Assembly (NCBI GenBank): GCA_008632985.1
Contig: QPGO01000037.1
Location: forward strand, 124,001-188,000
Length of the DNA: 64,000 bases
Direction of reading: 5' to 3'
DNA from: Psammoneis japonica
Taxonomy: Eukaryota
In this document: one piece after another, positions 9,561-64,000 of the stretch
Position numbering within the stretch: position 1 is the stretch's first letter
Layout of the letters: each line of letters begins with the position of its first letter
The notes under the pieces: generated by a model
What the model was told of the DNA's origin: nothing
What the model saw: only the letters and a program-made list of their open reading frames with translations
Database searches by the model: none
Program-made: the position numbers and the translations under genes

Positions 9561-9944
9561 TTGTTTTGTGCTCTTGTTGCAGATTGGGGGGTGTCTTTGT
9601 GAGCTGGCTTTTGCTGACATGCTGTTGTTTCCAAATGACCCCCCACTGACAAACTCCTCAAACATGGAAGACCCCTCTTGACATTTGCAACGGCACTTGT
9701 TGGTGAACAAAAAAGGTGGCAACAATCTTGGTGGCTGGCAACTTGCTGCTAGCCTCAGTGTGCATGCTTGCCAGAGAGTGATTTTGTTTGTTCATTTGTT
9801 CAAGTTAGACAGACAGACAGAGAAAGAAAGTGCAGCAGCAAGTGATGGACAAGAGCTGCAGGCACAAAGTCTGTGCCCCCCACTGGAAGACATTTTTCAG
9901 CGCTGTGACAGCTTTTCCTTTGTCAAGGATGGCAGCTTGCTTCT

Positions 9945-10420
9945 GACAAAGCCACTGCAAAAGTCATGTTGCTTCCCCTGATGTCAGCCCAAGCCCATGG
10001 TTGTGTGCCCAGCTGCTGCATGTCTGCATCTTGAGTGTGTGCACACTGCTTGCTGGTGGCACTGCGAGTGACAGCCACGTTCTGACACACTCTCTGCTTT
10101 TTGACTGTGTGCTGCAGTGCTCAGCACATCACTTTGGAGATTGTGCCAAGCCATGCAGGCACCAGATGCTGTTCCTTTTGAGACTCAAGAGACACACTCC
10201 TCTTGCAGAAACACCAAAAACTTCTCTCCTCGAGCCTCAAAAGAGGAGGCGTGTCATCACAGCAGCCCCCCCCAAGACAGGAACCAGTTCGAGCAGCAGC
10301 AGCAGCATGCAAACATGGTGCTCAATGAGGACAAGCGCCACTCGCCACTCGCTTTGTCATTGCTTTCATGACTTGCACTCCTCGTCGGCTACACGGTTCT
10401 TTCTCGTGCTTCTTTCGCAC
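9945..10420 (+). repeat. Dispersed direct repeat, copy 2 (possible LTR)
   Basis: Homologous to 6130-6620; its right end retains CpG. Confidence 0.75.
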
Positions 10421-10632
10421 ACATGTTGTGGACCCGTGACGACGGCGATGCGCGGAACATCACGTTTGGTCAACACGAAAGGCGCGTTTCTTCAGTCCCG
10501 CGAAACCGAGAACGCGGCTGGAAGCGGGGGAAATGGCGGGGTCGACATTCGACATTTGCCGAAGGCCGTCACAAACTAAACAACGTTGTTGAAACGTCAC
10601 ACCTGGCACCACCAACGCCCAGCACCTAAACC

Positions 10633-20520: not shown

Positions 20521-20982
20521 AACGCGACAATGATGCCGTCATTTATCGTCGGTTCTCGGTAAAGAATCGTCTCTTTTTTGTATTCAGCGCGTTCAATTCT
20601 TTCCAGGGTGGCAGTCATTTTGAGATTTTGTTTCGTTCTGAAAACAAGTGCGTGCTTTTTGGGTCGTAATAGGCCTGCGGTGTTGGACGAACGAATGTGA
20701 TTAGGAGTCCACATTATTTGTGCAGAGCAAAGGGAGGAAGACATGGTATGGGATAAACGCTCACTAGTTCCGAAACTAGTCGTCTGCCAGAGATCTTCGT
20801 CTGCACAAGCACAGGTCTAGGCCTGTTACAAGTACAGTACGAAAATTCTATAACAAACCAACTGATCCTGGTGAACTGAAGAGGAGAACATTCTCCCCAG
20901 TGATTGGGTTTGATATTATTGTTAAAGAACCTACAATTCATAATGTGGATATACAACATGCTACCATATGCAGACAGGGACA

Positions 20983-23136: not shown

Positions 23137-23559
23137 TGTTCTTGAGGATATTTTAAAGGTTGTTTTAGGGTAAGTAAGAGGTGAAAGGTTGTTGGATCAA
23201 CACTTTTCGGAATTGTGACAGCCATTCTGTTGCCAAATTCAGGCTTGACGCAATCCTGGTGAGTCGTTCTTTATTGGGGGCGAGCCACGTTTGGTTTCAT
23301 TCGCGGATAGATGGGGCGGAAGGGTCGTGCATAACAAAGCCCAAGACATATGTATGTCTCGATGTATGACTCGGTCATTTTTTTGTCCATTCTGCTGTGT
23401 CGCGTGCAGGCACGCACACAAGCATCGCTCATCATTGACCAACATCGACAGAAAAAAAGGTCGTACTGTGTAGACAAAAACATTAAAAAAATGTCAAAGG
23501 GTGTTAGATTCAGCGAGGCGAAGGTTCGCCGAACGGTTTTGCCACTCGTGGTTCCAACA

Positions 23560-25430
23560 ATTTGGCAAATTGATGTTTTTCAAGTCTTTGTCTTTCCAGA
23601 TTTTGTGCTGCAGTCACAGTTGGCAATGCAAGCTTGACAGAGATGATGAGAAAAAACAACACAGGAGAGAGGCGCTGCCACACAAAAGAGCAGGAAGACA
23701 GAGCTCAGAGAGAAAGCAGCAGCTGGCGCTGCCTCTGCAGAGCTTCTTTGGGGGAAATGACAAGAGTTGAGCTCAGCACATCAGGTTTGGCAACTTGTTG
23801 AGAATGAGGGCACAACACCTCAAAGAGCTGGTGTGGAGGCTTTGCTCTCTCTCAAAGAAGTGGGCAGCCGCTGAACAAAAAAGCTCTCTCTGGCTTGTCA
23901 CAAGCAGGGCTGGTGCAGAGATGGCAGCAGCGCTCATCATGCAAAAAGCACTCTTGGGGGTTTCTGGAGCCCTGGCAGCATGCTGCTCAGTGCTCTGTGA
24001 GTGGCTGCAAGCCACAAAGCAAACAAAATGACAAAAACAATGTTGCAAGAAAATTCGCTGTGCAGACTTGGCAGCTCGTTGGTTTTTGACAACTGCGGTG
24101 TTTTTCGGCACACAGCAGCAGATCTTGAGCAGCAACAAGAGAGGCAGGCAGAGCTTCTGTGTGCTGCACCAGCTCCCAAAGTGTCAGAACCCAGAGCTGC
24201 CATGCTTTTGAGTGTGCGGCCTCTGCTGCAGCTCTCGCAAGCTTGTGGCCTCAGCACGATCCTCAGCGCTTGCTCTGGGGTTGTGTGCACTGTGCTGGAA
24301 CAAAAGGTTTCTTTCCTGGCCAGGTGGGGAGAGGGTTCTTTTTTCTCTCCTTTGCTTTGGCTGGCCAGTGCCGTGCAAGTTTTTTTCTGAACAGCTCCCT
24401 TGTCAATCAGCTGAAAGTGTGGAAGAGGGAAAAAACAGCACAGAGAGGAGAGTCTTGTGTCTGCCAAGCCTCATTTGACACACAATGTCAGTGAGTGCAC
24501 GTTGCTGGATTCAGGCAGAGAACCTCTGCTGAGAGGGGGTTTGCGGATCAGCTTTGACCTCCCTCAGTCACTCACAATTTTGTTCATTTGCCCCCACCAA
24601 ATGTCAACTTTTTTTTGTTGGTCGTCAGGGGAAACTGCCTGATTGCGCCTCTTGCTAGATTTTTTGGAATTGGGTTTTGAGTTTCTCCTGCGGAATGCAA
24701 TTTGGAGGTGGAAACGAGTGCGAGCAGTTTTCTCCATCTTTGCACTTTCACGCTCTTGAATTTTCCACCTGCCATCTTCAGACTGATGCCGGTTGTGACG
24801 GTGGAGGTGCCAAGGAGCGCAGCGCAACTCATCCGGCTTCTGTGGCAATTTCTTGATCGAATCTTTTCCAACCCCCAGCTTTCGCAAGAAAAGTCGTTTT
24901 TCATCAGGATTTGCAGGAAGACGAAACATGCCAAAGTGAGAGTGTCCAATGCCTTCGCAGACTGGATTCTCACAACAGCAAATCGCCGGTGCCGATTTGC
25001 CATTGCACTGTGGCATGTGCTTGGGTCCAAGCAGGCAATGACCCCGTCGCCCCTTTTTTTTGGCTTCCCTTTCCCATCCGTCAACCGAGGGTGCCAGCCA
25101 CGGCCATGAACAATGCAGAGCCCATGGTTTTGACAAGCTGCCAGGCAAACACAACTTTTTCCACTTGCACCCTTGCAAGTGAACTCGGTGAACGACACCA
25201 AGTCTGACGCGATGCCAAGAGCTTCTGCAAGTTGTGCCCGAGACCCAACCGAGCCAAAATCAACAGCACTCATTGCTTTCAGCAGTGAGATTGTGGACCA
25301 TGCGCAGTTTTGCCATACATCATTCATTCAACAGGACGGCAGCTGCTGTGACTTGCTCTTCGTCTCTGTCAAAAGTCATAAGAAGCATGTGATGACACTG
25401 ATGTTGATGTGCTGCAGTCTGCAGTGAAAA
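23560..25430 (-). mobile_element. Decayed DNA-transposon-like remnant with THAP-like and CxxxC..HG.G zinc finger fragments; TpA-depleted
   Basis: Minus-strand CCCENPVC...FRLPANPDEKRLFLRKL...LRCAPWH (THAP-like) and CKGASGKSC...CQNHGLCIVHGRG; strong TA depletion. Confidence 0.5.
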
Positions 25431-28937: not shown

Positions 28938-30744
28938 CTACTGTACTAGGATACGTACCGAAATAATGGACGACATGAATGCATCAAGAGCGCGTTCATT
29001 GATCATTTCGTCGCTATGGGGCTTACTTTTTGCCACACTTGAGTTCCTTCCAACAGAGTAGAACTCGTATCCAAGAATCTGCACAGCTTCGGCCTGTATT
29101 CTTGAGCGCACAGGGTCAAAATTATCGTAAAAGAGCTTTTCACATGCACCACGAAGGGTTGATGTAATATCTCGTTCATTGATTGATAACCCGTGCTGGA
29201 ACAACTTGGATGACTGCTTCGAAATGTCTATTCTCACACCGCTATTGACGTTACAGTTGTTATCGTCAGGGGGGTCCTCCTCAGACTGCTCTGCCATTAT
29301 CTTCTTCTTTTGCTCCTTCTGGTACGCTCTGACAGTGCTATCGATTGCCCGTTTTTCCCGATACATTGTAAAGTCCAAGAGTGTATCTCGGACCTTGTTC
29401 TCAACCGTGAATGCTGTTCCAACAAGTCCAAATGGCGAGTTCTTGTGGCCAAGAAACTTCTTTGCCTCAGATTTCAGTGCTGAACCAATGAGAGCGAGAA
29501 AGACCTCTCCAAAATCCCCTTTTGCAATGGCTTCAGCTTCTAGTTGACAAGAAGCTTGAAAGCACTCCAGAGTTTGCTTGCCATTGACAAAGTCTGAAAC
29601 GCGACTTCTCAAGTGCATCGCAATATTGAGCTCCCTTCTCCGTTGTTGCAATGTGTTCGGCAGTTGCTTCTTTCCGTACAAAAAGTCTTGTCCCTCCTCG
29701 GTCAACTCAAAGGTGCTATCCACAAACGAGGCGATCGCCAGCTGACCGACATATGGTTCGACAAGATTTGAGCCAAACATGATTGCAAAGAACACTTGTG
29801 GATCAACGTTTGGTTTGGATTGCATCTTGGCGTGAGCCCCTTGCTCATAGCATACAGCACCATTCTGGTCGTATGCCTCTCGCATTTCGTCGTCCATGAG
29901 CGTTTCATATACAAAATGAAGTCGATTAAACTTTTCTTGTGCATCAGGGTCATCTCGATGTTGATCCGGATGTACGTTCCTCGCCTCGCGGCGGTACGCT
30001 TTCTTAATGTCGCTGGCATCTGCATCGGACGGTACTTTCAGCATGTTGTAATACGATGAATCCTTGACGCGATTCTGAGAAGCTCGACGCAACTGTGGGC
30101 TCCTGCTTCCTCCCCTCGGAATTTCTCCCCGAGCGTCGAGGAGACGCTCTACTTCAGTAAGCTCTTGATCCATGGAATAACAACATAATCGGCGTTCTTC
30201 TCGTCCCACACTTTTCCCTCGGCAGAAGCTGCGATAGCTTTGGGCGTCATGGCAATACCCATTGTGAGTTGATATATGGACGCAGTCACTCCCGCGGTAG
30301 CAACGAGTACACTTGAAACAAGAGCAACAGGCGTATCTATCAAGACTCCACCCAATCCTTTCAATTGCCACCTCTCAAAGGATAGAAAAAGGCGACACTC
30401 ACAAAAGAATCGAGCGTGTTTAGCAAATTTGACATTGCAGAAGAGACCCCACTTATCGCATCTCGAGGACAATCTATGTTGAAAACTTTTGAGAATACCC
30501 GTTCCATGAGTTGCCGACGAAGTGTACGGAGTACGGATGATTCTTCGCTCTCGTATTCTTCCACTTGGGTCTCGTCTTGTTTCACGTCCATGGCTGAAGC
30601 GAGGCGTTCTGCATAATCGCTTACGGCTTCGTGTGGTCTGTTTCTCCTCTCTTTTGTATCAATAGCATATGACGAAGACCATACAAGTGCCAAAACAGCA
30701 GCTAATGCTTGCCAACGAGTGCATCTCATGAGTAAACACGCCAT
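28938..30744 (-). CDS. DnaJ domain protein with DnaJ-X domain and predicted signal peptide
   Basis: YYNMLKV...IKKAYRREAR.VHPD; FFAIMFGSNLVEPYVGQL. N-terminal RDAISGVSS block is homologous to the 38888-40973 gene; frameshifts in the 5' part. Confidence 0.8.
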
Positions 30745-30859: not shown

Positions 30860-33420
30860 CATGAACACGGAGTTTGAGACATGTTCTGGTGACGACCTTG
30901 TCTTTGTCAAAGAAGTTTAGACTTGGTGAGGCACCCCAATGTCACTCTGCTCTTTGTTGGTTTTGTTTAAAAATTAAAATGTGCACACAGCTCTTCTCTG
31001 CACACGGTGTTGTTGGAGAGCAGAAGCCTTGCGAGAGCTGTTGCTTTTCTTCACATCTGTCAAAGTGCGCAAAAAGCAAAGAGAGACACGCTAAAAATGG
31101 CAAGCTTTTCATGGCCAGCTCTTGGCCCCTGATTGTCCACAGCTGCAATGCCAGAGCACATGATGCACAAATCAAGGCCCCACAGAGATTTGTGAGCAGA
31201 GCACATGATGTGTTTTCATCCCAGGTGAGAAACTTTTGGACACATCACGAGGTTTTCTACGTGTTTCTACATGAGACGTACATTTAGCACCAAAAATCTT
31301 AGTAAAAAACGAGCTCCAAGACACCAAAAATATATTTTTCCATGTCTCGAACCACAAACCACAATTCGCGCAAACCGAAAATGGCACCATGCCGTCGCCA
31401 TGAACTCGTCCATTCTCACACCAACGGATGTTGTGACTGAGAAGGCAAGAATGTCGAGACAGGTCAACAAGACAACGCTCAATGCGATGATGTGGTTGAA
31501 AAATTGATCTTTGTTTTTTGTTGTGCCTTGTGGATGGCCTTTTGACTCATGACATTTTTGATGCCTCTTTCTCTCTTCCTCAGCTTGCGAAGTGGGATTC
31601 TCATCAACGCGCCGCTCCATCTGCTTGACACCGGATGCTGACAACGAAGAATGTTTCTATGACACGTTGCTGTGATTCTTGCATGTATCGTCCGCACTTT
31701 GAGTCGTCATGGACGACGCTTTTGGGTCGCGCGACAACATCAGATTTCGCCACCGACAAGAGAATCGTCATGTGTTCGGTTTTGAGGGTGTGTGAGGATA
31801 AAGAATCTCAGATGCAAGTGTGACAGTTTCATCATTGTAAAGTAAAACAATGCCATTGGCGACATCTTGGTGTTGCAGCCATTTTGTTTTATTCTAAGAT
31901 AGAACTGGTCATTTTGAGCGGCGAAATTTTGTCAATGTTTCATCTTTAACTCTGCTTGGGCACATCAAATCACACAATGACCAGACACACATTGAACTTT
32001 GACGCTGCCATTTCAATCCTATTGTTTTATTCACTCAAGCATCCCACACAGGTTGACAAATCAGTCGATCTTTGAAATGGCCGATCGCGCAAAAAAATCA
32101 CGTGCGAAGTCAGTTCCCCGATTTTTCTTGTGCAACACAGAGTTAGAACGCGTTCTTTTTGGCATGAGCTCTTTATACAATGAATGATGCATGCATTCTT
32201 TCAAAGTAGTCAGATTCGGTGAAAGAAACAGCAGAACAGTCTCTCAAATGCACCAGAATGACAACAACGAGCAGACAGCTGTCAGTTTCACTCCAAAAAA
32301 TGCCGCTTTCGAGATGGCGCTTTTCTTGTGCGCACCCTTCAACCAATGAGAACAATGGCTGGCTTTTCAAAATAAACATGTCTGTGGAAGAAGAAACGAA
32401 AAATCAGGGGAAAGTCCAGTCAGATTGCTCGCACAAAAAGCACGGCGACGGAAAAGGACAGACGAAACGTCTCACCTCCGCAGCGCGTTTCTACTGGATG
32501 AAAACACATCACATGTGTGCTCCTGCTCACAAAATGTGGCTCAGCAAGAAAAAGCACATGTCACATGATGATGCTGGACTGATCCTGCTGCATGTGGCCT
32601 GTTCCAGCCCCAGCAGGTGATGAGACATCCATCATGTGAAAGGCCAATTTTCTGTGCAGTTCAGCACATCAAACTCCTTCAACTGTGATCGCTTCGAAAA
32701 TCGAAAGGCAAGTGCACACCCGAAAATGCATGTGAAGTGCACACTTGCCCTTCAATTTGGAAAAACAGGTTTTGAAAGAGTTAATGTGCCAAATGCAAAA
32801 ATGGGCAAACATGGGAATCGAACCTGTTCGCATCACCTGGAGCTGGAAGAGGCAAGAAAGCACAAAGCTTTGGAGCAGCAGAGAAAGGTGTGTGCAAATG
32901 CCGCCAGCTGGGGCCTTTTACATGAGCCACCCAAAAGTGCATAAAATGCCAGAAAATGTCAAAATTGCAAGTTTTGTGTGGTTGTTGTGGTTGCAGAGGT
33001 GTGCTCTTTTTGCTCCCTTTGTTGTCGTTTGAGAGCGCCAGCACAGCAACAAGAAGGAAAACACCAGCTCAGCAGGCCCAGTGTGGAACAGCCAAGCCAA
33101 CTTTGTATTTGGGAAGCACACCTTTCATGCTTTTTGCCACTGTGTAAAAAACAGCAGTGAAGCGCAGTGCCCATGCACAGCACAGGCTGCGGCAGGACAA
33201 AAAAAGAGAGAGCTTCACAAAAGAAGGGGCAGGAAAGCCCAGGCTCTTTGGAAGAGACAACGGTGTGGCTTTTTCTCATGTCTGCTGAAGCAACAGGGTC
33301 TGCCATGAATGAATGGTGATTCAAGCAAACAATTTGCTGCACAATTGGTTCTGTCATGGCAGGAGAGCGAAACGAGAAAAACGAGGTGCACCAGCGAAGC
33401 ACCAACCATGCGTTGGATTG
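30860..33420. other. Patchy CpG/TpA-depleted hypermutated domain (unclassified repeat remnant)
   Basis: TA-poor throughout with CpG partly retained (about 31340-31800 and 32060-32490); no credible ORF. Confidence 0.7.
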
Positions 33421-36751: not shown

Positions 36752-37350
36752 NNNNNNNNNNNNNNNNNNNNNNNNNNNNNNNNNNNNNNNNNNNNNNNNN
36801 NNNNNNNNNNNNNNNNNNNNNNNNNNNNNNNNNNNNNNNNNNNNNNNNNNNNNNNNNNNNNNNNNNNNNNNNNNNNNNNNNNNNNNNNNNNNNNNNNNNN
36901 NNNNNNNNNNNNNNNNNNNNNNNNNNNNNNNNNNNNNNNNNNNNNNNNNNNNNNNNNNNNNNNNNNNNNNNNNNNNNNNNNNNNNNNNNNNNNNNNNNNN
37001 NNNNNNNNNNNNNNNNNNNNNNNNNNNNNNNNNNNNNNNNNNNNNNNNNNNNNNNNNNNNNNNNNNNNNNNNNNNNNNNNNNNNNNNNNNNNNNNNNNNN
37101 NNNNNNNNNNNNNNNNNNNNNNNNNNNNNNNNNNNNNNNNNNNNNNNNNNNNNNNNNNNNNNNNNNNNNNNNNNNNNNNNNNNNNNNNNNNNNNNNNNNN
37201 NNNNNNNNNNNNNNNNNNNNNNNNNNNNNNNNNNNNNNNNNNNNNNNNNNNNNNNNNNNNNNNNNNNNNNNNNNNNNNNNNNNNNNNNNNNNNNNNNNNN
37301 NNNNNNNNNNNNNNNNNNNNNNNNNNNNNNNNNNNNNNNNNNNNNNNNNN
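36752..37350. other. Assembly gap (N run)
   Basis: Run of N characters. Confidence 1.
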
Positions 37351-38887: not shown

Positions 38888-40973
38888 CTATGACGTAGAC
38901 GCCGACTGTTGTGTCCCTCCTCCGGATGCCATTCCCATCGCCTGCATGCTCTTGGCTTGTTTTATGAGTTCTTCTGTATCTTTCTCAGAAACCTCTTGCC
39001 CTTGTGCTTTTGCCATTGTGGTCATGACGGCCACTTCTGCTCGAGCCTTAATTTCCTGCGTGTCGTGGTGCTTCAAATCCATTCCGCCTCCAGCTGCCGT
39101 TCCAATTTCATAGAAAACTCCTCCCAATATCTGCACCGCCTCTGCTCTCTTCGTTCTCACCTCAATCGGCACGGATGCATCTGTAAAGAGCCTTCTGCAC
39201 ACTCGTTTTAGAGTTCGAGTAATGTCCCGTACATTGATCGCCCAAGCTAGCGCCAGAATCTGGGGAAGCGACTCCTCGATCTTCTTTTGGGCCAAGGCGG
39301 CTTGTTCAGGATCAATTGAAACGCTCGTCCCATCGGCGCTGTTGGCTTTGTTTTCACTCTCAGACTTCGTGCGTGCTTCTTTTTGGACGGTTTCCACCTC
39401 TTTCATTGCTCTGCGACCAGCCCGAGCCGCACTTATACCAGCTCCAAGAATTTGCATGTTATTGGAGAAGTTCTTGGCATTCTTGCGAGCGCGAGCAGAA
39501 TGCCCCTCAACACCCAAAAACGAATTCTGAAATCCCAAGAACTCGTCTGCTTCCACCTGGAACGCAAAGCCAATGGTGGTACAAAACGTGTCTCCAAAAG
39601 AGCCTTCCACGATTTTCTTGGCCTCTTCTTGACAAGAGGTTTTAAATTCTTCAACCGTTTGCTCGCCATTCACAAATGGCGCGATACGTTCCCGTACATT
39701 CAGCGCACACTTTACCTCTCGCTTGCGTTGTTTGAACTTGGCTTCTTCCGATTGTTCAGCATGTTTCTTTGCCATTTCCATCGCATCCTTTTCAACGTCT
39801 CCCTCTTCGCCGCTCTCTTCAAACATTCCCTCCGAGGACGCATCCTTGATGAGGGCATCGGCCGTGTTTGCAATCCACAGCTCGCCAATATAGGGTTCCA
39901 CTAAATGCGACCCAAACATGACTGCAAAGAACACATAAGGATCAATTTCGGCCATGTCAGTCTCGGCGGATGTCTCTGGTTTTCCATTCTTGTCGTACAA
40001 TCTTCGGGATTCTTCGTTGCAGAGAATCTGATAGGCGTGTCCCAATTCTTGGAATTTCTTTGCCGCCTCTGGATCATCAGGGTTCTTATCAGGGTGACAT
40101 CGTCTCGCCTCCTTGTAGTAAGCTTTCTTGATTTCAGCCTGCGAGGCATTGGTGCTGACTTTGAGCAAGTCGTAAAACTCCCGATCCTTGACGGGACGCT
40201 CCGTAAGGGTTGCACCCGTCTCTGATTTACCGCCCGTCTTCTTTTCGGCTTCCAACCGCTCTACCTCTTCCATTTCTTTATCCAAATAGTAAAAATACCA
40301 TTCACGCTTTTCCTTATCCCACTGCATTCCCTTTCGACTGCTCTGCACGGCTTCTGCTGAATTCACAACACCCCGTCCCACCTGATAGGCACCGACGCAA
40401 ATACCAGTCACGGGCAACGCGACGGCTGAAACAACTCCTGTAGCAAGACCCGTCACAAAGCCCTTGGCACCATCCGCGTGCGCCCCAGCAATCGGTTGTG
40501 CAATCAAGGATGCCACTCCCGCGACCGTGCCCTTGGCAACACTCTTGAGACCTGAACTGAGACCGGCCCAACCGTCTTTGGGTCTCCGAGTCGAAAAGAG
40601 GGAGTCAAACACTTCCTTCGCCTATAACAATTAGTAATGCACAAACAAATTGTGTAAGTATGTTTCCCGGAACTTTTATACTACTAGAACGCACAAACAA
40701 AGCGTTCCGAGCTGTTGGTGCGGGCAACTCAGTCTTCCTCCTTTGAGTGACGGGACCAGCCATTGCAAAACGAGATTGGGCCGTCAAAGCATTTGAAAGA
40801 GGTACAGCGGCAGTCAGTACCATATATAAGCTGTTCCCTAAAAAAAAACTCACCTCTGCAACCTCCTTATCAAGCTCTTCTTCCCTTTTCTTAATGGCTT
40901 CGCTATCTACAAGAGACGAATCAGTGGCTGTCGATTCGTCCGCTTCTTGCTGCTGCTCGCTGCTGCTACTCAT
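38888..40973 (-). CDS. DnaJ domain protein with DnaJ-X domain
   Basis: FYDLLKV...IKKAYYKEARRCHPDKNP; FFAVMFGSHLVEPYIGEL. Exon 1 40854-40973 and intron 40622-40853 join in frame. Confidence 0.92.
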
Positions 40974-41563: not shown

Positions 41564-43699
41564 ATGTCGTCGTCGGAGGACCAAGCCGTTCCACGGGAGC
41601 CCAGTCAGGATGGGAGTTCTCAGAATGAGGATATTCCTAGCTTTGATGAGGATGAATGGTTGAGGGTGGTGGAACAAGCCAACGCCAAAATTGCACAGGA
41701 TGGAGACATGAGTCCAATGGCGAGTGCAGAAGACGCAGAACTTAGCACGCATGTGGATTCCCTTATAGAAGCTGCCAAGGTCCTGGTGAGCAAACAGAAA
41801 AAGCATGAGGACGATAACAACGATCCTTCCGTTGCCAGCTCGGAAGGATCTTTGGGAATGCCTCCCGACAGCAAGAAACCTCCAGAACGGAGCGACGTTG
41901 GTAGTCCTTGGACTTTAGCATCGGAACATGCCGATAATAGTACGTCCAGTCCATGGGAGCAAGTCGAGACAACTACAGTAGAAAAACGAAAAAGGAAGGA
42001 TCCCCGTCTTCCTCCTTCTGGCAAACCTTTTCTGATATCAAAACGATTCCTACTCCTCGCGATGACGACTCGTCTCTTGGATCTGGAAGCATGGACTTAG
42101 TTTCCAACGACGAGAAGAACCCCTGGATGATTACTCCGAACGAATCCATGGTGACTCCGACGAATCCCTCAAACGAAGGTGCAGCGGACGCGAATGAGGG
42201 AGGAGATGCGACTGCAACAGCTCCAATGTCACCGGTTCGTGACCAAGCTGGCATGGAGCAGCCTTCTCCCGCCCAACAGGATCCCAGTGTGATCAATGCA
42301 GCCCCGCTACCTACTACCAGTATGGACCGCAAAGCAACGGATTTTGTTCTCGTCGATGATACTGAACAAATGAGTGGGTCTCCTTCACCGCAAGATGAGC
42401 TCGAGTCAGGCGCAAGCCCTTCGAAGTCAGTTGTCCTTACACATTCCATGACACCAAGCTATGATATGATTGTTGAAGAGGTCCAACAACAGCCTCCAAT
42501 GGAAGCTCATTGTGACGTCTTGCCAACCCGGAGCGCCGCAAAGTCCGATCATCCAGGTGTGCCATCTCCCCTCACTTCTTCTGCAGCACAGAATTGGTTT
42601 GGTTCGATGTCCGTTGGAAGTCCGACTGCACTGTCCAAAGCTTCTCGGGACGGAAAATCCGCTACTCCTTTGCACGACACAACCAATCAAGGAAAAATAA
42701 GTAAAATTCAAAGTCGGGGAAGGCCTGCCATGATAGACACAAACATTTCAACTACAGGTACGTTTTTCCCATCACTATTCCAAAAAGTGTTTTTGCTTCA
42801 ATTCCTTACAGGTATGGTACTTTCTCGCTCTCTTGTCTCTCGGCTTTGCAGCAACAGGTCTCTCAAGCACGGCACAGGTTTCTCTTACTGAAGAAGATCA
42901 AGAATTATTTGTCCGAAACGCTGCTCTTGCCAAGAAGCGAGTGCGCGTAGTTCAGCTTCTTCTCCTTGGACTCCTCGGTCTGGGCATGGGCCTCTTTGGA
43001 ACTATCAATGTGCAAACTACCTGTAGCTTTGTGAAGGCAGAAGCAGATGTCGGCGCGCAGCAAGAGGCATTCGATATGAACTATGGCTTTTGGAAATACT
43101 CCCCAATCGATTCCGCCTTTGATGGACACTCGTATTGCACCGGCTACGACAATGAGTACTTGAGCAGCACAGCTCCGTATGTTTCACGTGTCGCTGGTGT
43201 CTTAGCGTCCATTTGTGGCGGGTATGCAGTTTTTGTGCTTTGGTACTATCTCCTCACGGGACGAGCCAAATATAGGGCTTGGAATTTGGCAGTGCGCTTG
43301 CTGATGGTAGCAGCCTTCATGCAGGCGACAACGTTCTTCATCCTTGCTGACAACATTTGTCAATATAACTCATGTTCCCTGGGTTCTGGAGCAAAGCTTT
43401 CCATTGCGATTGTCATCACTTGGCTTGTTGTAGCATATGAAATGAATGCTCAGAGACCAGTCTCCAACTTGATCCGACAACTCAATGAAACTGGTCCAGT
43501 TGAAAATCAGCTTGCCACTCTAGAAGTGGCGGACTTCAAGGAAGGTGTAAAGAATTATGTGTACCGTTTGACGGGGAAGGCGTCGATTCCCACGTTGAAT
43601 GCTGTTCAACGAAGACGAGGCTTTACTCCAAGGAGTGTCAAGAACGTGGATACGATGAGCCTTCATAGTCCAGCATACAGACCGCCTCCCATTGTTTGA
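41564..43699 (+). CDS. Hypothetical protein: long disordered N-terminus plus claudin-like 4-TM C-terminal domain
   Basis: S/P/D/E-rich ORFs followed by TM1, TCSFV...YGFWKY...C and three more TM segments. Probable intron near 42758-42858; frameshift near 41970. Confidence 0.7.
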
Positions 43700-43862
43700 G
43701 TTTTGTCTTGTACGAACCTTTCTGTACGGTACCTTTTATCTTTACATTTTCAAATAGAACAAAGGAGAAGAATTCATACTCATAAATTTATTATATAATT
43801 GTAGTTAAATCGATGGCATTCTCCCATCTCTGCGTCTCCGCCCAACGCTTTGAAACGAACTG

Positions 43863-44594
43863 TTAGATCCACGTTGACGCACGCTTCTCTCGCATAGCCT
43901 GAGATACCTTCCTCATTGCTTCCCGTTCTGAGAGTAGGAAGTATCGTCCAGTGTTGGGATCCTTCTTCACAAAGCGTCCAACATGCGACACAAGATAGCG
44001 TGCCGTCTCGTAGTTTTTGTGTGTCTTTTGCGCTTTTGTGATAGTCTTCTGCTTGGTGAAACGCGCAGAGTCTTGGCGTTTACTCATGATCACGCGGCGA
44101 TAAAGCCTGTTGCCCTCGTTATTATTGGATCTGCCACCACGCCCAACAAGAATGTCATGGTCTGTGGGTTCTGTAACATAAACACGACGGCTTTTGCTTG
44201 GCGAAAATTTGGGATCCTTTGGCCACAACCAACGAAAGTTTTGGAATAGCATTGCTTTGAAACTCTTGCTGGTGACTGCAAGTAGAAGTCGGGAGCGCAC
44301 ATCGGTAAACTCTACAATGAGGCTTAAGGTGTCATTAGGGAGCTCCGTGATTGAAAATCGGTTGCAGGAGGATTTGTCGGAGGAATCAATGTTGGAGAAA
44401 TCAAAAAGTTTCAGGATTTCATCTTCCAAATCGAGGTCATTCGGCAGGAATGAAAGGGCGAAGTCATCAACATCTTCCATTGGCAGTGGTTCAAAAGGAT
44501 CGGAAAGTTCCATTGTCAATCGTCGATCACTGCGATATCGTAAACTTCTGCTGGCAAAATTGTCATGGTCAAGCCTCGACTCAACTTTGTTCAT
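43863..44594 (-). CDS. F-box-like plus DUF6824 domain protein
   Basis: ITELPNDTLSLIVEFTDVRSRLLLAVTSKSF (F-box-like); PTDHDILVGRGGRSNNNEGNRLYR...GRFVKK...AMRKVSQAMRE (DUF6824). Confidence 0.82.
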   Translation of the reverse strand: MNKVESRLDHDNFASRSLRYRSDRRLTMELSDPFEPLPMEDVDDFALSFLPNDLDLEDEILKLFDFSNIDSSDKSSCNRFSITELPNDTLSLIVEFTDVRSRLLLAVTSKSFKAMLFQNFRWLWPKDPKFSPSKSRRVYVTEPTDHDILVGRGGRSNNNEGNRLYRRVIMSKRQDSARFTKQKTITKAQKTHKNYETARYLVSHVGRFVKKDPNTGRYFLLSEREAMRKVSQAMREKRASTWI

Positions 44595-44679
44595 TGAGTA
44601 TCTTCAACACCTTGTATGTTTACATGATTGACCCGCATGTAGAAAAGTACAATTCTTCCTACTCGCCAATCGTGCAACA

Positions 44680-47510
44680 TTTGGCACACTCATGGTGGGT
44701 GAACGACGAACAATGCACAACAACGCAGTGTGCATGAAGCAGCTCAATTTTTGCACATTCAGCTGTGGCCATGTTGATCCAATCACCTGGTCATGGTGCC
44801 TTCACCATCTGTTGATCAAGAAGATCCAGGCTTCCCCCTTCTTGGATTGCTTTGTTGAACAGGGGAGAAAGAGTGGGCCCTGGTCAAGGCACCCCCCTCC
44901 ATTCAAAAGAGGAGAGGGCTCAATCTTGGCAGCACTTGCTCATGACAATGTGGCAATGAAGCCTGTTGTCCTCATCATTGTCAGAGATCTCTGCACCCAC
45001 CATGCCCAACAAGGGTGTCATGGTCAGCGGGGGCTCTCTGCAGAACATCACACTCAAGAAGATGGCTTCTTTTGCTTGGGGGGCGAGAATTTGGGATCCT
45101 CTTTTGGCAGCAACCAATGAAAGTTTTGGAACAGCATCACTTTGAAGCTCTTGCTGGTGACTGCAAGTGGAAGTCAGGAGCACACATCAACAAACTCTGC
45201 AGTGTGAGGCTCAAGCTGTTGTCACGGAGCTCCTAGATGGACAGAAAAGCCAGCTGCAGGAAGGGGGTTTTTGTCCTCAGAGGAGTTTGTGTCAGAGAAA
45301 TCAAAGTTTTTAAGACGTGCCACTTCCAAATCAAGAGGTCATTTGGCAGGAATGAAAGGCCAAAGTTTTTGACATCATCCTCCATTTTTGGCAGCTGAAA
45401 AGGGCCAGAGAGCTCTGTTGTCAGCACGTCACATCGACCACTTCAGCGTGGCAAGCTTCTGCTGGAAAAGTGTTGTGTGGTGTCAACAATCAAGCCTCAA
45501 CTCAATTGTGCTGATGTGAGAATCTTCAACATGTGGTGCACATTTGCATGATTTGCCCACATGCAGAGCAGCACAGTTCTTCCCACATGAGGGTTTGTTT
45601 GAAAGCACAAATGCCAGCAGCATGAGAGTCGACACAAAAAACTCACTCCCAACCAACAGCTGCTCACTCTCCATCTCAACATTCCCGCAGCTTGTTTGGG
45701 TGCAATGAAAAAAGGAGATGCCCACCCACTCCTTTTGAGATAAAGACACCAAGAGGTTTTTCCGCTGCACTGTTGCAAGGAAGGCAAAAATGCCCACACC
45801 AAATGCATTGCTTGGTGGCAAGAAGGACAGTGTGGAGGAGGAGGCCAGAGGGCAGGGTCAGTGAAAATGACCTTGCCACCACAAGCAGGGGCTTTGAGTT
45901 TCTGTTGTGGAAGTGTGCTGGAGAGCAGCTGGGGTTAACAGAAAGGAAAAATTTTGTGAGTTGATGAGAAGGCAGGGGCAAGACAAGCAAGCACATCATG
46001 GATTAGAAGAAAGCAGTCTGGCCCCAGTGTTTGAGCTTGTTGCTGGAAACAAAGGGCACACATGTGCCTTGAGAAACCAGCACAGAGAGGCAGAACAAGG
46101 GAGAGATGGACAAATGCAGAGATTTGGGAAAAAACAACAACTCAAAGTGCCAAGAAAAATGGAGCATTGGACAAGCTGAGCAAAGCGCCAAGAGTTGCTT
46201 TCAAACCAAAGAACTCCATCAGTTTTCTTTTCATGCAAAATGCCCAAGCAACAGAGCCACAATAAAAAACAACACAAGAAGCAAAATGAAGCAGAGTTGA
46301 GAGCCAATGAAGTGGGCCCATGGTTGGAGAAAAGTTGTGCTGTTTGCGCGATGGCCACAACTGCAGCTGACAATTAAAGTGGCATCATCAACAGCATGGG
46401 TTGATGCAGCAACCAAAAATGAGCTGTTTGCCAAAAACAAATTGTTCAGACAAAACATCTCTTTTGCTGCAGAGAAGTTGCCCCGTGTGTGCTTGAAACA
46501 AGCAAGAGTTTGCTGCATGTGGGATGCTGGGCGGGGGCAGCACAAGATTTGGGTGTTTGGCTTGTTTAAAAACCTGTCTGGAGAGCTCAGAAGGTGACAT
46601 GCTGGACACCCAGTGTGGGGTCAAGTGGCAATGCCTGTACATTCATGAAAAAAGAAATCTGCTCTTCAGCGCAGATGAGCTGTGTGAAACAAGAAAGATT
46701 TTGCTGCACACACAGCATCAGGGGGGCCTCTCTGATGACATCAAAAATGGTGCACGGGGGGGGGGGGCATTTTTGCATTGAAAATTGGTTGGGGAAATGC
46801 TGCTTCAAATGGCATCACAGCCACATTTTTTTCTGCAATGGAGCTGTCTGAACAGCCCCAGGGAGCCCAGCAGGTGTGCGCGGAGGCGGCTTGTTTCTGT
46901 GAAGTTCTTGCTCCCCAAGTGTGCGCGCATGTCCTCCAGACACATGCTCCTCCATCTTGTTTTGTTTCTCTTGCACACACAACACACACGGCTCTCATCT
47001 GTGAGTGCCGTGCACTCCTCTGTTTCCTGTGGGTGTGTTTGCCATGCCTCTTTTTCTTGGGTGTGCACACCACATCTATCACAAAACGACAAACAAATGG
47101 GTTCTCATGTTGACAGTGAAAAGGTTTTGCAAAAGCAAGTGCATTGCTGTTTTCTCCCTTCTCCCCCCTCCTGTCGATTTGTTCTCTCGTGTGGCAGCAT
47201 TGTTCGCCGTGGAGAGCCAGCCAGCACGGCAGAGTTTTCTTGCTTCAACACCGCTGCCTTGGCACACTTGGAAGTTCGATTCTCCAGAGCCTGATGGCAC
47301 CTTTCCAAGGAGTGACTGGAGTATGAATGAGGAGAACACTCCAGTCAGTCCTCTCCTGTCTAGCAGCAGAGCGTGAGGTGGGCCCCTCTCTATCTGCCCC
47401 AGGAGAGAGCGCTGAGCAGAGACACACCCCTGCTGAAGACGACATGCGTCAGCGGTCGCACACTGACGCGCGCAGAATCGCGTGGTGGACGCTGATGAGG
47501 ACCGATCGAA
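44680..47510. other. CpG/TpA-depleted hypermutated domain
   Basis: TA and CG nearly absent; CpG returns near 47440 before TpA does. Confidence 0.9.
44920..45590 (-). pseudogene. Hypermutated tandem duplicate of the adjacent F-box/DUF6824 gene
   Basis: Colinear with about 44070-44662 (e.g. ctcttgctggtgactgcaagt, ggcaggaatgaaagg, cttccaaatc); many indels; CpG and TpA replaced by TG/CA. Confidence 0.92.
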
Positions 47511-57136: not shown

Positions 57137-58345
57137 TTACTTGCCTGCGAGACCCAAGATGGACTTAAGATTGGCTTCCTTCTTTTCGAATTCGGCAACC
57201 TGTTCTAATAGAGAGGCTTCCTTGGTCTGGTAGTCTCCAATCTTGGTCCAGAGCTCATTTTGTTTCGCCTTGATCACTTTATTCTCAGCCGTGAGTTCAT
57301 CCTTTTCCGCCTTAAGCTCGAGTTGAGCAATCATGAGGGTAGCGTTGGTTTTCAGAAGCTCCTCTTGCTTTTCCTTGTACGTTGCATTGTCGCTTAGAAG
57401 CTCCTTTTCCTTTTTCAGAAGCTCCTCTTGCTTTTCCAGAAGCTCCTCTTGCTTTTCCTTGTACGTTGCATTGTCGCTCAGAAGCTCTTGTTCCTTTTTA
57501 TCGGAAGCCTCAATTTTTTGTTCGAGCTCCCACTCTGTTGCCTTGTGCGCTGCAATATCCGACAATAGCGATTCTTGGACGGCCTTGAATGTTGAAAGCT
57601 CCTTCGAAAGCTCATCTTCCTTTGCTTTGGTTTCGGCATTTTCCTTCGAAAGCAACTCCTTTTCTTCGGTGAGCTTTTCAATGCTCTCGGAGAGACTCTT
57701 TTCTTTGCTTTCGAGTTCAGCGTTCTTGGTGACGAGTTCTTTGTTCTCAGTGACAGCGGAAGCGAGTAGAACCGTCATTTTCTGAAGCGAATCAATTGCC
57801 TCTTCCTTTTCCTTCTCATACACTTGCAAAGCATAGTGGGTTTGTCCTTTCTGGAGAGCCTCGATGATTTCGTCGGAAGACGAAGTACTCATTGCAATGT
57901 CAATAGGACGATTGGACCACCTATTTTTCATTTCGAGGGATTCTGGATAGGCAATCAACAGGTGCTGCACGACGACCAAAGACGCGTTGTTTTCAACGGC
58001 GTGATGAATAGGAAGTTGTCCATCAGAATCCTTCTCGCGGACACCCTCTGGATAATGCTTGATGAGAGAAACGATGATTTCTTCACTGGGGTCATGCATA
58101 CATGCTTCATGGATAGGGAGGCGACGGAAGCTCTCCATAAAGCCAAGAACTTTGTGAGAAATCCATTCGGCCGCGACGGAGGGATCGGCTTCCAAACGCT
58201 CCACCGCTGTATCCCAGTCCTGCCTCTCTAATGCTTTGAGAAGTCTGGTATCCATTTGAGAGACTTGCGGGGATGCCGAATCAAACGACCCCCCAACGGC
58301 AGGGCCCGCCATAAAGGTGCATGGGTTGATTAAAAAGTCCGTCAT
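57137..58345 (-). CDS. Ankyrin-repeat plus coiled-coil protein (paralog 1)
   Basis: RLPIHEACM, DSDGQLPIHHA and NRPIDIA; E/K-rich coil with repeated ELLSDNATYKEKQEELL. Confidence 0.88.
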   Translation of the reverse strand: MTDFLINPCTFMAGPAVGGSFDSASPQVSQMDTRLLKALERQDWDTAVERLEADPSVAAEWISHKVLGFMESFRRLPIHEACMHDPSEEIIVSLIKHYPEGVREKDSDGQLPIHHAVENNASLVVVQHLLIAYPESLEMKNRWSNRPIDIAMSTSSSDEIIEALQKGQTHYALQVYEKEKEEAIDSLQKMTVLLASAVTENKELVTKNAELESKEKSLSESIEKLTEEKELLSKENAETKAKEDELSKELSTFKAVQESLLSDIAAHKATEWELEQKIEASDKKEQELLSDNATYKEKQEELLEKQEELLKKEKELLSDNATYKEKQEELLKTNATLMIAQLELKAEKDELTAENKVIKAKQNELWTKIGDYQTKEASLLEQVAEFEKKEANLKSILGLAGK

Positions 58346-58794: not shown

Positions 58795-59754
58795 TTAAAG
58801 CCACCCAGGATGATCGACCTGCAAAATATGCAACATTTGTGATTCCTTTGACTGATATGCAGCATTTTCCTTGACAAGTTCTTCTTCTTTACCCAGATAC
58901 AAAGAATTTTCTTTCAATAGAAATTCTTCCTTTTTTTCGAGCGATGCTATTTTGTCCAAATACTCTTCTTCTTTGGGTGTGTGCGCAGCAATGCCCTTCA
59001 ACAGCATATCTTGTTTCGCTTTGAGCTCTAAGTTTTCCTTCCTTATTCTTTCATGCTTTGACTTTAACTCGTTAACCACGCCCAGCAACTCGTCTTCTCT
59101 TGTCGCTAGCTCTCCAGCTTTTTGCAACAGCATGTCGTTTTCTTTAACAACCGACGACACCATGTTGGCCAATTGCTTGTTAGACAGAATCAATTCCTTC
59201 CTTTCGTCTTTGTACATTTCCAAAGCGTAGTATGTAGGCCTTTTTCGAAGAGCCTCGACGACTTCCTCTGAACTCCTACTTTCCGCGATATCAATAGGCA
59301 GATATCCTCGCGCGTTTTTCACGTCTATGGAATCTGGAAATGATTTTAGCAGCTGATTTATCACTGCGATAGATGCAGCGTTCTCACAAGCGTAATGAAG
59401 AGAAAGGTTACCATTGGAGTCAAGTTTGCTGACACCATCGGGATAGCTTTCGATAAGAGCAGCAATTACGTCACCTCTGGCTTGATTCATGCACGCCTCA
59501 TGAATCGGCAGACGACGACAACTTTTTAATCCCCCAAGCCCCTGAAAGCTGACCCACTTCTTAGCCTCATTAGAATCCTTTATCAGAATGTCAATAACGA
59601 AGTCCCAATCGTGAATTTCAATGGCCCTGAACAGTCTTGTTGTAACCGCAGTGTCGGGTCCTTCTGTAGATTCAATGGAATCAACGATTTCACCGCTAAC
59701 ATCATGATCATGAATGGGGGATCCCAAACAAGCACATGGCATGAATAGGTCCAT
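58795..59754 (-). CDS. Ankyrin-repeat plus coiled-coil protein (paralog 2)
   Basis: RLPIHEACM, DSNGNLSLHYAC and YLPIDIA. Start placed at MDLFMPC by homology; the ORF extends to 59856. Confidence 0.85.
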   Translation of the reverse strand: MDLFMPCACLGSPIHDHDVSGEIVDSIESTEGPDTAVTTRLFRAIEIHDWDFVIDILIKDSNEAKKWVSFQGLGGLKSCRRLPIHEACMNQARGDVIAALIESYPDGVSKLDSNGNLSLHYACENAASIAVINQLLKSFPDSIDVKNARGYLPIDIAESRSSEEVVEALRKRPTYYALEMYKDERKELILSNKQLANMVSSVVKENDMLLQKAGELATREDELLGVVNELKSKHERIRKENLELKAKQDMLLKGIAAHTPKEEEYLDKIASLEKKEEFLLKENSLYLGKEEELVKENAAYQSKESQMLHILQVDHPGWL

Positions 59755-60396
59755 CGTTGGTAAAACGTCAGGCACCAGAGCGCACGTTACAGTTCTTATG
59801 ATAAGGGCCAACTTACTGCCATTCCCGTCGCCGTCTCTGACTTCAAAGCAACGCATCTTTCAGCGTTGGCGACGAAAATGTGACGACAACACGATAAGAT
59901 TTTCTACCTCATTTCAAAGATGTATAAAATATATTAGTTTTACATAGGACATACTTTTTATTACTATTTGTATATATAAGTAAATTCGTGAAAATCGAAC
60001 CACGAGCCACACACACATGACACATGCACTTACGCAACATGAGATCATGAGATCATGAGATAGGGCCCTACCGGTACGCTGGATAGGCCCTACCCTACAT
60101 ACAGTAGCGGCGCAACAAAATCAGTGTTTTAGATGCACGTATCGTACGGAAGAAGTACGGTACCAGGGTCGAATAGAGAAGGAAAGTAGGCTCTCTAAAT
60201 GTAGATAGAGAGCTAGAGTAGGGCCATAGAGTCCAATTGACCGGAGACCGCGTCGTGTTAGGTGGGACGACGATCTGTTGGCGTTTTTGCACGAAAACAA
60301 AAACGCACGAAATAAAAGTGTGTCCTTTGAGAAAGGAACGTCCTCAAGAGAGATTGAGGAATGCAACGTGAGTGCTACCTTCTGTATTCAGCGGTT

Positions 60397-61943: not shown

Positions 61944-62648
61944 TCATTCTTTCATGTTGGTCTGCAAGAGCTTCAAAAGCTTTTCTTCTTTTTGAACGTG
62001 AAACGAGTTTCTCTTCACGAGCTGAATCTCCTTCGCCCTGCGCACCTGATTCTCCTCTGTGAGATGCTTGTTTTCGGTTCTAACCCGATTCAACTCAAGC
62101 TTCATTTCCTTCATACTATCCCTGTAACTCTCAACAGCATAGTATGACGGCCTTTTCTTGAGCGCTTGGATGATTTCATCGGCAGTCGACGGATCGCTCG
62201 TGGCGATGTCGATAGGGAGGTTTCCCCAGTTGTTCCGAACATCAAGGGAGTCGGGACAAGCAAGAAGAAGCCGGTAGATTACACCATATGATGCGCCATT
62301 AGCGCAAGCATGGTGAATGGGGAGTTGTCCATCGGAGTCCTTCTCTCGGACACCGCTTGGATGGGCTTTGATCAAAGCAGCAATGATGGCCTCCGTGGGC
62401 TGGTGCATGCACGCTTCATGAATGGGGAGACGCCAAAACCCACCGTACCCTTGGTGCTTCACCCAAATGGATGCCTCTTTTGGATTCGTCTCTAGAATGC
62501 AGGCAGTGGTGCCCCACTTCTGAATCTCAATAGCCTTGAAAAGCTTCGTGGAAGCGGCGTCGTAGTCCTGGACGCTAGAGTGGGGGATTTCGGTTGTTTC
62601 ACCAAAGGTGGGGCCGAAGCAACCACACGGAAAGAGAAGATCGGTCAT
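61944..62648 (-). CDS. Ankyrin-repeat plus short coiled-coil protein (paralog 3)
   Basis: RLPIHEACM, DSDGQLPIHHAC and NLPIDIA; N-terminus MTDLLFPCGCFG. Confidence 0.88.
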   Translation of the reverse strand: MTDLLFPCGCFGPTFGETTEIPHSSVQDYDAASTKLFKAIEIQKWGTTACILETNPKEASIWVKHQGYGGFWRLPIHEACMHQPTEAIIAALIKAHPSGVREKDSDGQLPIHHACANGASYGVIYRLLLACPDSLDVRNNWGNLPIDIATSDPSTADEIIQALKKRPSYYAVESYRDSMKEMKLELNRVRTENKHLTEENQVRRAKEIQLVKRNSFHVQKEEKLLKLLQTNMKE

Positions 62649-62979
62649 GATAAGGCCTTTCAATTGTCAGGACTCGAGAATTGTGAGACGTTGTGCGCTT
62701 ATTTGGAAGCGTGTTCCGAAATTGAATTCGGCGAATGCCAAAAAGTGACGCTGGATTTATTGATTAATCACATATTTATTGGTGAAGCTTTTTATATATC
62801 ATTAAATGCCGTGGTAAGGCCGTTGAACGGAGAGTTGGTTAATTAGTTATTCAGCGTTGTAGCGTTTATATTAAAATCAACGGACAAGCTACTGTACGTC
62901 GATAATTTTTGGCGATCTTTTCTTTGGGACCATGGAATCCTCATCAGCATCGATCGATTGCTCCTAGAGCTAGCCTGGC

Positions 62980-64000
62980 ACAAAGCCTTGAAAATCTGGT
63001 GGGGCAGGGTTGTCCAGGATCAAAAGTGATGGACAGGCACAAGTGTTGTGCAAACTCAGTCAGCTGCACGTCACAGTTGTTCTCAAGAAAGCGAGGGGAG
63101 GAAAAAACCAGATGCAATGTGGAAAAAGTCCCTTTTGTTGCTCAAGCCATCTGTGCTTTTTAAACCCCCGAGCAATGACATTTAAAATGTTTGCATTGTT
63201 GCTCATGGCTGCAATGTTGTCAATGGAAATTTCACAAATCTGGCAGCTTTGATTGTGACAAAAAAGACTGTGTGGGTTTGCACTGCACATGCTTTGCCCA
63301 CACCCTGTTTGGACTGTGTGTGACTCTGCCAGGTGTGCTGCAAAGCAACAGCTCCTTTGTAATTTTGAACAGCAAAATTTTTTAGATGCTTGGCTTGCTG
63401 TGTTTTCTCTAAGTCTTTTTCTTTGTTGATCTTTGAAAACCTCTTTTTGACTTTTTGGCTCAGAAAAAAGTCTGCAGTGCTGACATGAGAGAAACCCACA
63501 GTTCACATTGTTGAGCTTCGCACAGTGGGCAACTCTTTTAATAAAATTGCTGCCATGCTGTGGGCTAGCTTGCATTGGGTTGCCCTGAAAACAGAAGTTC
63601 TCTGAAACAAAATTGCTCAAGAAGGATCTCGCAAAGCATGGCGCAAAAGGACTGAGAAAGAAGCTGTGCCAAAACTCACAAAACAAAGCTCTGGACAAGG
63701 CCTGAAAAGCCCAGACAATAAAAAAGCAGAGAAAAAAGTGTGAGATGACAAGCAGCAGAATGACAAGCTTCCACAGCAGTGCAGCCTCCAGAACTTTAAA
63801 ATGTTGCAAAAAAAGGCAGGTGATGCACACCAAACACATTGTCAAAACTGCAAACTGTTGAGCTGGCAAGTTAATGCCACCACAAACAAATTCTGTTGGG
63901 GTTCCTGTGCTGTTCAATGTGCTTGCCTTGCAATCTGCAGCAGCCATGGGTTGACAAAGCTGTCAAGAATGCAACTGCAAACTTGCACAATGACAGCTGT
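62980..64000. other. CpG/TpA-depleted hypermutated domain (runs off the window)
   Basis: TG/CA-rich with scarce CG; the few TA are mostly in ttaa/taaa contexts; Tyr-poor spurious ORFs. Confidence 0.8.

Follow-up and report, generated by a model that had tools for sequence, protein, structure and literature searches.

Near-complete conversion of CG and TA dinucleotides to TG and CA in delimited blocks of a Psammoneis japonica genomic window, as recorded by an intact gene and its decayed tandem copy

How can a copy of a gene lose nearly all of its CG and TA dinucleotides when the neighbouring original retains them? This question is raised by a 64,000-nucleotide stretch of the diatom Psammoneis japonica (NCBI GenBank assembly GCA_008632985.1, contig QPGO01000037.1, positions 124,001 to 188,000 of the forward strand; hereafter the window, with coordinates counted from its first base), which carries an F-box/DUF6824 gene (43863-44594, minus strand) and a decayed, frameshifted tandem copy of it (44905-45586, minus strand). 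The intact gene is an open reading frame (ORF) of 243 aa with normal CG and TA content, whose product matches the Pfam domain DUF6824 (52.5 bits, cut-off 27) and, marginally, F-box (21.4 bits, cut-off 20.5), the F-box-like profile remaining under its cut-off (17.2 vs 24.3 bits). The decayed copy, recognized by local alignment to the intact gene, includes ~68 bases of the 5′ flank of the gene and lacks the final ~65 codons. A sequence-only reading of the locus had proposed that CG and TA were turned into TG or CA in the decayed copy by a hypermutation system resembling a reversal of fungal repeat-induced point mutation (RIP), and knew of no description of such a process as a genome defence.

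The alignment of the intact (44059-44662) and decayed (44905-45586) copies comprises 601 ungapped columns with 78% identity and 84 gap columns. Only 2 of the 27 CG of the intact copy were kept, while 14 became CA and 6 became TG (20/27 TG or CA). None of its 20 TA was kept, 10 having become CA and 6 TG (16/20 TG or CA). The other 14 dinucleotides were kept in 349 of 530 cases (66%; Fisher p ~1e-9 vs each of CG and TA), and divergence outside CG and TA, obtained by arithmetic from the dinucleotide counts, is ~17%. Counted per strand, A>G changes are found at 18/38 adenines of TpA vs 35/268 elsewhere (p=3e-6), and C>T changes at 20/54 cytosines of CpG vs 15/193 elsewhere (p=7e-7). The individual sites on which the proposal was built are all real, i.e. 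the CG at 44233, 44290, 44296 and 44303, the TA at 44247, 44283, 44306, 44313 and 44325, and the further examples at 44093-44104, 44621, 44640 and 44660, and the pattern is larger than had been noted, as it recurs in six blocks of the window.

The direction of change was polarized with homologues of the F-box/DUF6824 protein, of which only three, all distant, were found; these were aligned over the conserved core and the codons were read from the gene-pair sequences. The Arg of the GRGGR motif is R in all three homologues, and its codon is CGT in the intact copy but CAT in the decayed one. At the Tyr of the NRLYRR motif, the homologues have Y, Y and F, and the codon changed from TAT to CAT; that of the Arg that follows (R in 3/3) changed from CGC to TGC. 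Since the outgroup residues agree with the intact codons, the intact states are ancestral at these three sites, and the view that the decayed copy is the derived one is upheld. A separate argument for the same direction is that a functional gene free of CG and TA is not possible.

The decayed copy lies within one of six blocks, defined by sliding windows in which CG and TA both nearly vanish. These are B1 (1-10343, cut by the window edge; 45 CG, 29 TA, 1159 TG and 1239 CA), B2 (19008-20474; 24 CG and 3 TA), B3 (23531-24656; 19 CG and no TA), B4 (32469-33395; 18 CG and 6 TA), B5 (44730-47175, near-free of CG and TA, located between two divergent genes and holding the decayed copy, with a TA-free zone that starts at 44661) and B6 (62956-64000, cut by the window edge; 6 CG and 13 TA). 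B3 is continued by a TA-free extension (24657-25315) with partly reduced CG (observed/expected ratio, O/E, 0.5-0.9), and B4 is preceded by an ORF-poor, TA-depleted zone (31300-32468) with a TA O/E of ~0.15-0.3, raised TG and CA and approximately normal CG; this zone may be a younger or an unmethylated target of the process that removes TA. Together, the six blocks occupy 17,354 of the 63,401 non-N bases (27%) of the window, and their pooled O/E values are 0.14 for CG, 0.05 for TA, 1.80 for TG and 1.78 for CA, with 0.72 for AT, 1.29 for GC and ~1.29 for AA/TT. Their G+C content is 0.48, the same as that of the genes, and the longest TA-free run in the window has 1547 bases, as against 283 bases in ~213 kb of diatom-like contigs of similar G+C, so that chance is no plausible source of the pattern.

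Such blocks could in principle be old, unconstrained DNA that has reached a genome-wide neutral mutation equilibrium, with selection keeping CG and TA elsewhere, and they do lack recognizable genes and look old, as judged from the divergence of the gene pair. However, coding DNA has a CG O/E of ~0.9-1.0 with synonymous sites included, and ordinary short intergenic spacers are the richest of all in CG and TA (30-43 per 250 bases vs 0-8 in the blocks). The block edges are sharp, with the transition completed within 100-300 bases, and the intact F-box/DUF6824 gene begins ~70 bases from the TA-free zone, yet has 27 CG and 20 TA in 600 bases. An equilibrium without any targeting is therefore very unlikely. 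Because the spacers are rich in both dinucleotides, coding CG is close to expectation and the edges are sharp, the blocks are best described as a separate compartment with its own mutation regime, and the depletion of CG and TA is regional, not genome-wide.

As for their content, the identifiable parts of the blocks are host-derived copies only, namely the gene copy described above and a copy of promoter-region DNA. The latter belongs to a second before/after pair, in which a segment of normal composition just outside B1 (10335-10525, plus strand), upstream of a gene starting near 10634, has a decayed counterpart within B1 (6540-6715, plus strand); of its 13 CG sites, 1 was kept and 9 became TG or CA. 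Pfam searches with all 146 stop-free frames of at least 70 aa in the blocks gave five matches, all under the cut-offs (UPA, DHHC, EPF, zf-RRPl_C4), which are read as Cys-rich noise from TG-rich DNA, and tRNA and Rfam scans of the blocks gave no match. Three long ORFs in TA-free DNA (63063-63962, 19941-20744 and 24584-25327, all on the minus strand; 300, 267 and 247 aa) have no Pfam domain and translate to Cys-rich, low-sense sequences; long spurious ORFs are expected there because without TA only TGA stops remain. Within the window, no repeat family common to different blocks was found by blastn or tblastx. When alignments were purine/pyrimidine-coded, and thus transition-masked, the top between-block score was 34 vs 24-29 in the null, and only duplications internal to B1 stood out (score 67). 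The likeness to RIP that had been claimed is not upheld, as CG and TA are at normal levels in the intact copy and no repeat family links the blocks within the window, with or without masking of transitions. B1 also contains a tandem array of a 312-base unit (8629-9563, plus strand; 3 copies, 88% matches), which is TA-free and nearly CG-free and therefore arose or was homogenized after the depletion.

The reality of the decayed sequence was supported by an independently assembled contig of 5203 bases (word depth 57; reads of a public DNA run), which spans 42161-47358 and includes all of B5. The run may come from the same organism or sample, but the assembly was made separately, from short words, and its sequence is not the same as that of the window; over 42161-47358, the two differ by 15 letters and 5 gaps (99.7% alike). 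The sequence-only reading had called for the bases to be confirmed with raw reads, and the independent read assembly carries the same decayed sequence. Ten of the 15 letter differences fall in the 2.4-kb B5 block, with 6 of these 10 being transversions, and 6 of the 15 interconvert CG or TA with TG or CA. A two-base flip is also present at 45507-45508 (plus strand), where the window has TG and the independent contig CA; this one observation may indicate that the process has not ceased. Further explanations would be base-calling errors at modified bases, mis-assembly, a foreign origin of DNA that never had CG and TA, or selection against the two dinucleotides, and the window does contain a scaffold gap (a run of 599 N at 36752-37350, with sequence of normal composition on either side). 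Given the agreement of the independent contig, the derivation of the decayed copies, with indels, from local host sequence, and the presence of CG and TA in the ancestral states, next to no credence can be given to any of them.

Contrary to what had been supposed, a process of this kind has been described. In the chlorarachniophyte Bigelowiella natans, silent integrated viral DNA undergoes TpA>TpG/CpA hypermutation (Mettrop et al., bioRxiv 10.64898/2026.01.13.699255). According to the accessible text of this preprint, the mutation rate of two silent integrated viral regions in mutation-accumulation lines is ~1000x that of the remaining genome, with bursts in some lines, and 230 of the 231 mutations in the viral inserts are A>G/T>C transitions, all at TpA. 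The same text reports 124 TpA-poor, CpA+TpG-rich clusters in the B. natans genome, and its authors suggest that an adenine deaminase resembling ADAT2 is responsible and that the process serves defence (10.64898/2026.01.13.699255). CpG, diatoms and flanking bases all go unmentioned in the part of the preprint covered by a term search. In full-text literature searches, neither TpA hypermutation nor a combined loss of CG and TA was found to be reported for diatoms or other stramenopiles.

Whether the changes arose in DNA or in RNA can be read from their distribution over the strands. Along the decayed copy, TA>TG and TA>CA changes alternate, and TG and CA show no strand-wise clustering (runs test z=1.0, with a modest over-dispersion of 1.3-1.75). 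Both features imply many independent DNA-level events on both strands, in line with the strand symmetry that the sequence-only reading had held, and not one edited RNA or a single-stranded episode. Editing of transcripts by an ADAR-like enzyme with a U-A preference, followed by reverse transcription and insertion, would make the blocks edited retro-copies; the decayed copy indeed ends ~68 bases upstream of the ATG, which is a possible transcript end, and ADAR has a 5′ U preference (as given in the accessible text of 10.64898/2026.01.13.699255). One edited RNA, however, gives one direction of change, and here both strands are equally affected. Moreover, the decayed copy is a 3′-truncated tandem copy that carries 5′ flank, the second pair is promoter DNA, and the CG loss would be left unexplained, which makes this route extremely improbable.

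The bases flanking the changed positions define the process further. In the gene pair, A>G changes were found at 8/12 TAC, 4/8 TAT, 4/12 TAA and 2/6 TAG sites, and outside TpA at 26/120 adenines followed by a pyrimidine (NAY) vs 9/148 followed by a purine (NAR; p=2e-4). The TA that survive in the blocks show the complementary pattern, with 39/61 in the context YTAR (vs 315/1761 outside the blocks) and 2/61 in RTAY (vs 537/1761 outside). Per strand, a pyrimidine follows a surviving TA in 24/122 cases vs ~39% predicted from the block composition (p=6e-6). Since the gene-pair contexts and the flanks of the surviving TA agree, the A>G process is concluded to prefer T-A-Y. Thus the A>G/T>C mutator at TpA that had been postulated holds as a strong enrichment, but it is not TpA-exclusive, as NAY contexts outside TpA are raised as well. 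Surviving CG in the blocks are enriched in GCGC and CCGC, i.e. in G+C-rich flanks, as expected for deamination.

In another explanation, the loss of TA is collateral damage of repair. DNA polymerase eta prefers W-A sites (W, A or T). If frequent T:G mismatches from 5-methylcytosine (5mC) deamination in methylated blocks were repaired by long-patch resynthesis with an error-prone polymerase of this type, A>G errors at W-A would remove TA, the CG itself being usually restored. This would account for the occupation of the same blocks by both losses and for TA loss being more complete than CG loss, which fits each repaired CG costing TA in the patch, and the order of A>G frequencies (TA 18/38, AA 18/108, CA 9/80 and GA 8/80) has the expected form. 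The difference between AA and CA+GA is not significant, however (p=0.20), the blocks show an excess of AA/TT (O/E 1.29) and not a deficit, transversions at TA are few (3-4/20), and zone 31300-32468 is TA-depleted though its CG is normal. The B. natans mutations, in the accessible text of the preprint, are TpA-only and transitions only. Repair collateral is hence considered unlikely.

That one system causes both losses, as had been suggested, is not borne out, as they are separable in space. At 4 of the 5 block edges compared, the TA-free zone reaches beyond the CG-poor zone by ~60-700 bases (TA-free vs CG-poor limits of 44661 vs 44725, ~18787 vs ~19000-19100, 25315 vs ~24600 and 10389 vs ~10231), the right edge of B2 being the one without overshoot, where both zones stop at about the same place, near 20400-20500. 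The 800 bases of 24600-25400 contain 3 TA and have a CG O/E of 0.5-0.9. Because the TA zone is wider, and because 31300-32468 is TA-poor with normal CG, the loss of TA is independent of the loss of CG; the TA process is either faster or wider than the CG process. In a simulation with background transitions and transversions plus two extra rates, the CG, TA, TG and CA values of the blocks were matched with transitions at CG ~25x and at TA ~60x as frequent as background transitions. Double changes between TG and CA (7 in the gene pair, 3 among the copies of the 312-base repeat and 1 as the polymorphism) are expected, since a new CG or TA would be short-lived and quickly resolved either way.

The same separability tells against a common chemistry. 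In dinoflagellates, 5-hydroxymethyluracil (5hmU) prefers TpA. If a TET/JBP-type dioxygenase oxidized thymine and 5mC in silent chromatin, 5hmU or 5-formyluracil at TpA would mispair with G and give T>C, and its action on 5mC would speed CG loss, so that one 5-methylpyrimidine chemistry would cover both palindromic pyrimidine-purine steps, which are lost together. On this scheme, the T of TpG would also be a target and a gain of CG would be predicted, and the losses of CG and TA are separable. A literature search for 5hmU in diatoms gave a dinoflagellate review only, with no evidence of such bases in diatoms. Thymine oxidation is thus quite unlikely to be the cause.

With these alternatives weighed, the explanation that we consider probable is that of a gene-free compartment exposed to two strand-symmetric transition processes, namely methyl-CpG deamination and a TpA-directed A:T>G:C process of the kind seen in Bigelowiella, the latter probably enzymatic. 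Gene-free stretches of 1 to >10 kb would form this compartment, in which both dinucleotide-specific processes would have run near to completion on both strands. The first, CpG>TpG/CpA, would most simply be 5mC deamination in methylated silent chromatin; CpG loss is attributed to it because the CG>TG/CA changes are symmetric and regional, with a CG O/E of 0.14 in the blocks vs ~1 in genes. The second, TpA>TpG/CpA (A:T>G:C, with T-A-Y preferred), would be enzyme-driven, most likely by DNA adenine deamination, and would be aimed at silent chromatin and not at sequence homology. Any DNA landing in a block would be converted, including the tandem F-box/DUF6824 copy and the promoter-region copy, and a functional neighbour copy, tens of bases off, would stay untouched. 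The sequence comparisons themselves establish the conversions with their direction, their restriction to the blocks and their symmetry between strands, as well as the flank preference and the separability of the two processes; methylation, targeting through chromatin, a deaminase and any role in defence are inferred.

The diatom blocks share several features with the B. natans regions. In both, A:T>G:C transitions at TpA yield TpG or CpA on either strand, and the changes are confined to delimited regions, which are silent in B. natans and presumably so in the diatom. In both, the long-term footprint is TpA-poor and CpA+TpG-rich, with a direction that raises G+C, opposite to the usual bias. The host here, however, is a diatom and not a chlorarachniophyte, the depletion is near total (TA O/E 0.05 vs 0.45 in the B. 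natans viral region, as given in the accessible preprint text), and the T-A-Y (3′ pyrimidine) preference is absent from that text. In addition, the rate was measured directly in B. natans, and here the ~60x background comes from the equilibrium fit only.

Several observations weigh against the favoured explanation. It is based on a single 64-kb window. The identifiable targets are host-derived copies, unlike the viruses of B. natans, and the Pfam search with the 146 block frames detected no viral or transposon domain. Loss of CpG accompanies that of TA in the blocks, whereas the accessible text of the B. natans preprint mentions no CpG component. Four of the 20 TA of the gene pair changed otherwise (TC twice, AA and CG), and the two-rate simulation fails on AT (0.72), GC (1.29) and AA/TT (1.29). 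Furthermore, the gene pair is old, so that a steady 10-60x bias suffices and bursts of hypermutation are not required. Generality was checked in diatom-like metagenome loci around orthologues of the CMAS methyltransferase encoded in the window (28 contigs, ~213 kb, similar G+C), in which the longest TA-free run was 283 bases and no joint CG/TA depletion was found; the CG/TA-free blocks are thus a trait not general in diatoms, or one lost in metagenome assemblies. The other 52 CMAS-related loci look prokaryotic, and long TA-free runs were present there only at G+C of 0.64-0.72.

As in fungal RIP, non-genic or duplicated DNA is destroyed irreversibly by heritable transitions at specific dinucleotides, which are revealed by before/after copies. 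RIP, however, makes TpA from CpA or TpG and lowers G+C, whereas the direction here is the opposite and G+C is unchanged at 0.48; RIP mutates both copies of a duplication, whereas here the intact copy escaped, and, within the window, none of the blocks is a repeat. The CG component resembles the CpG decay through 5mC deamination in vertebrates and plants, being a CG>TG/CA change on both strands that is regional and absent from unmethylated genes, and diatom 5mC is described, in the accessible part of the source, as confined to transposons and silent regions. Such decay accounts for half of the pattern and for nothing of the TA loss, and the depletion is stronger than in mammals, of which a CpG O/E of ~0.2 is typical. 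With APOBEC3, ADAR and TadA/ADAT, the TA process would share a context-specific deamination that is used, or usable, against selfish nucleic acids, and with ADAR and the TadA/ADAT substrates (tRNA U33-A34) a 5′ T or U before the edited A; engineered TadA prefers Y-A-C. The substrates of those enzymes, however, are single-stranded DNA or RNA, and the clusters that the enzymes leave are strand-coordinated, whereas the changes found here are heritable, chromosomal, strand-mixed and cumulative.

The window is nuclear DNA and, outside the blocks, gene-dense, and its ORFs encode M1 aminopeptidase, SRP72/TPR, MYND, DnaJ-X, amino-acid transporter, dual-specificity phosphatase, CMAS methyltransferase and ankyrin domains. 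The best matches of the CMAS protein have 79-86% identity, the best named one being a fragment from Leptocylindrus danicus (86%), and brown-algal and other ochrophyte proteins have ~50-58%. Exact look-ups of ten proteins of the window in a protein collection gave no match. The M1 aminopeptidase gene (12353-14261, minus strand) consists of two ORFs (13578-14261 and 12353-13507) with an apparent short intron of ~70 bases between them. Two DnaJ/DnaJ-X paralogues (28938-30173 and 38888-40327, both on the minus strand), ~9 kb apart and both of normal composition, have DNA similarity limited to a 76-base stretch. Three consecutive ankyrin-repeat paralogues (57137-58345, 58795-59856 and 61944-62648, all on the minus strand) have 64-66% DNA identity, and the first of them carries in-frame tandem repeats of 21, 42 and 84 bases at 57345-57554.

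Hardly any case is known in which chromosomal DNA is naturally subject to targeted A:T>G:C mutation, the 2026 chlorarachniophyte preprint being the sole report found. The window adds the same signature, driven to saturation, in a second, distant algal lineage, with host-derived copies and not just viruses as targets, with an extended T-A-Y motif and with a defined spatial relation to CpG decay, the TA zone being the wider. As a more tentative proposal, which at present seems rather doubtful, diatoms and, with Bigelowiella, the wider group of stramenopiles, alveolates and Rhizaria might possess a chromatin-guided DNA adenine-deaminating system (T-A-Y) that permanently rewrites silenced DNA of host or of foreign origin. 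Acting alongside the decay of methylated CpG, such a system would remove the two pyrimidine-purine steps that are self-complementary, and could serve as a heritable, sequence-destroying genome defence, opposite in direction to fungal RIP and not homology-triggered. If general, the process would destroy pseudogenes and transposons by a new route and give rise to G+C-neutral compositional domains. It would also confound gene finding, as false genes are likely to be called in TA-free blocks, in which the stops are TGA only. Finally, it would suggest that a DNA adenine deaminase, or an enzyme with an equivalent activity, exists in nature, which is of interest to base editing, and before/after pairs such as those described here would give a direct readout for tracing that enzyme by knock-out.

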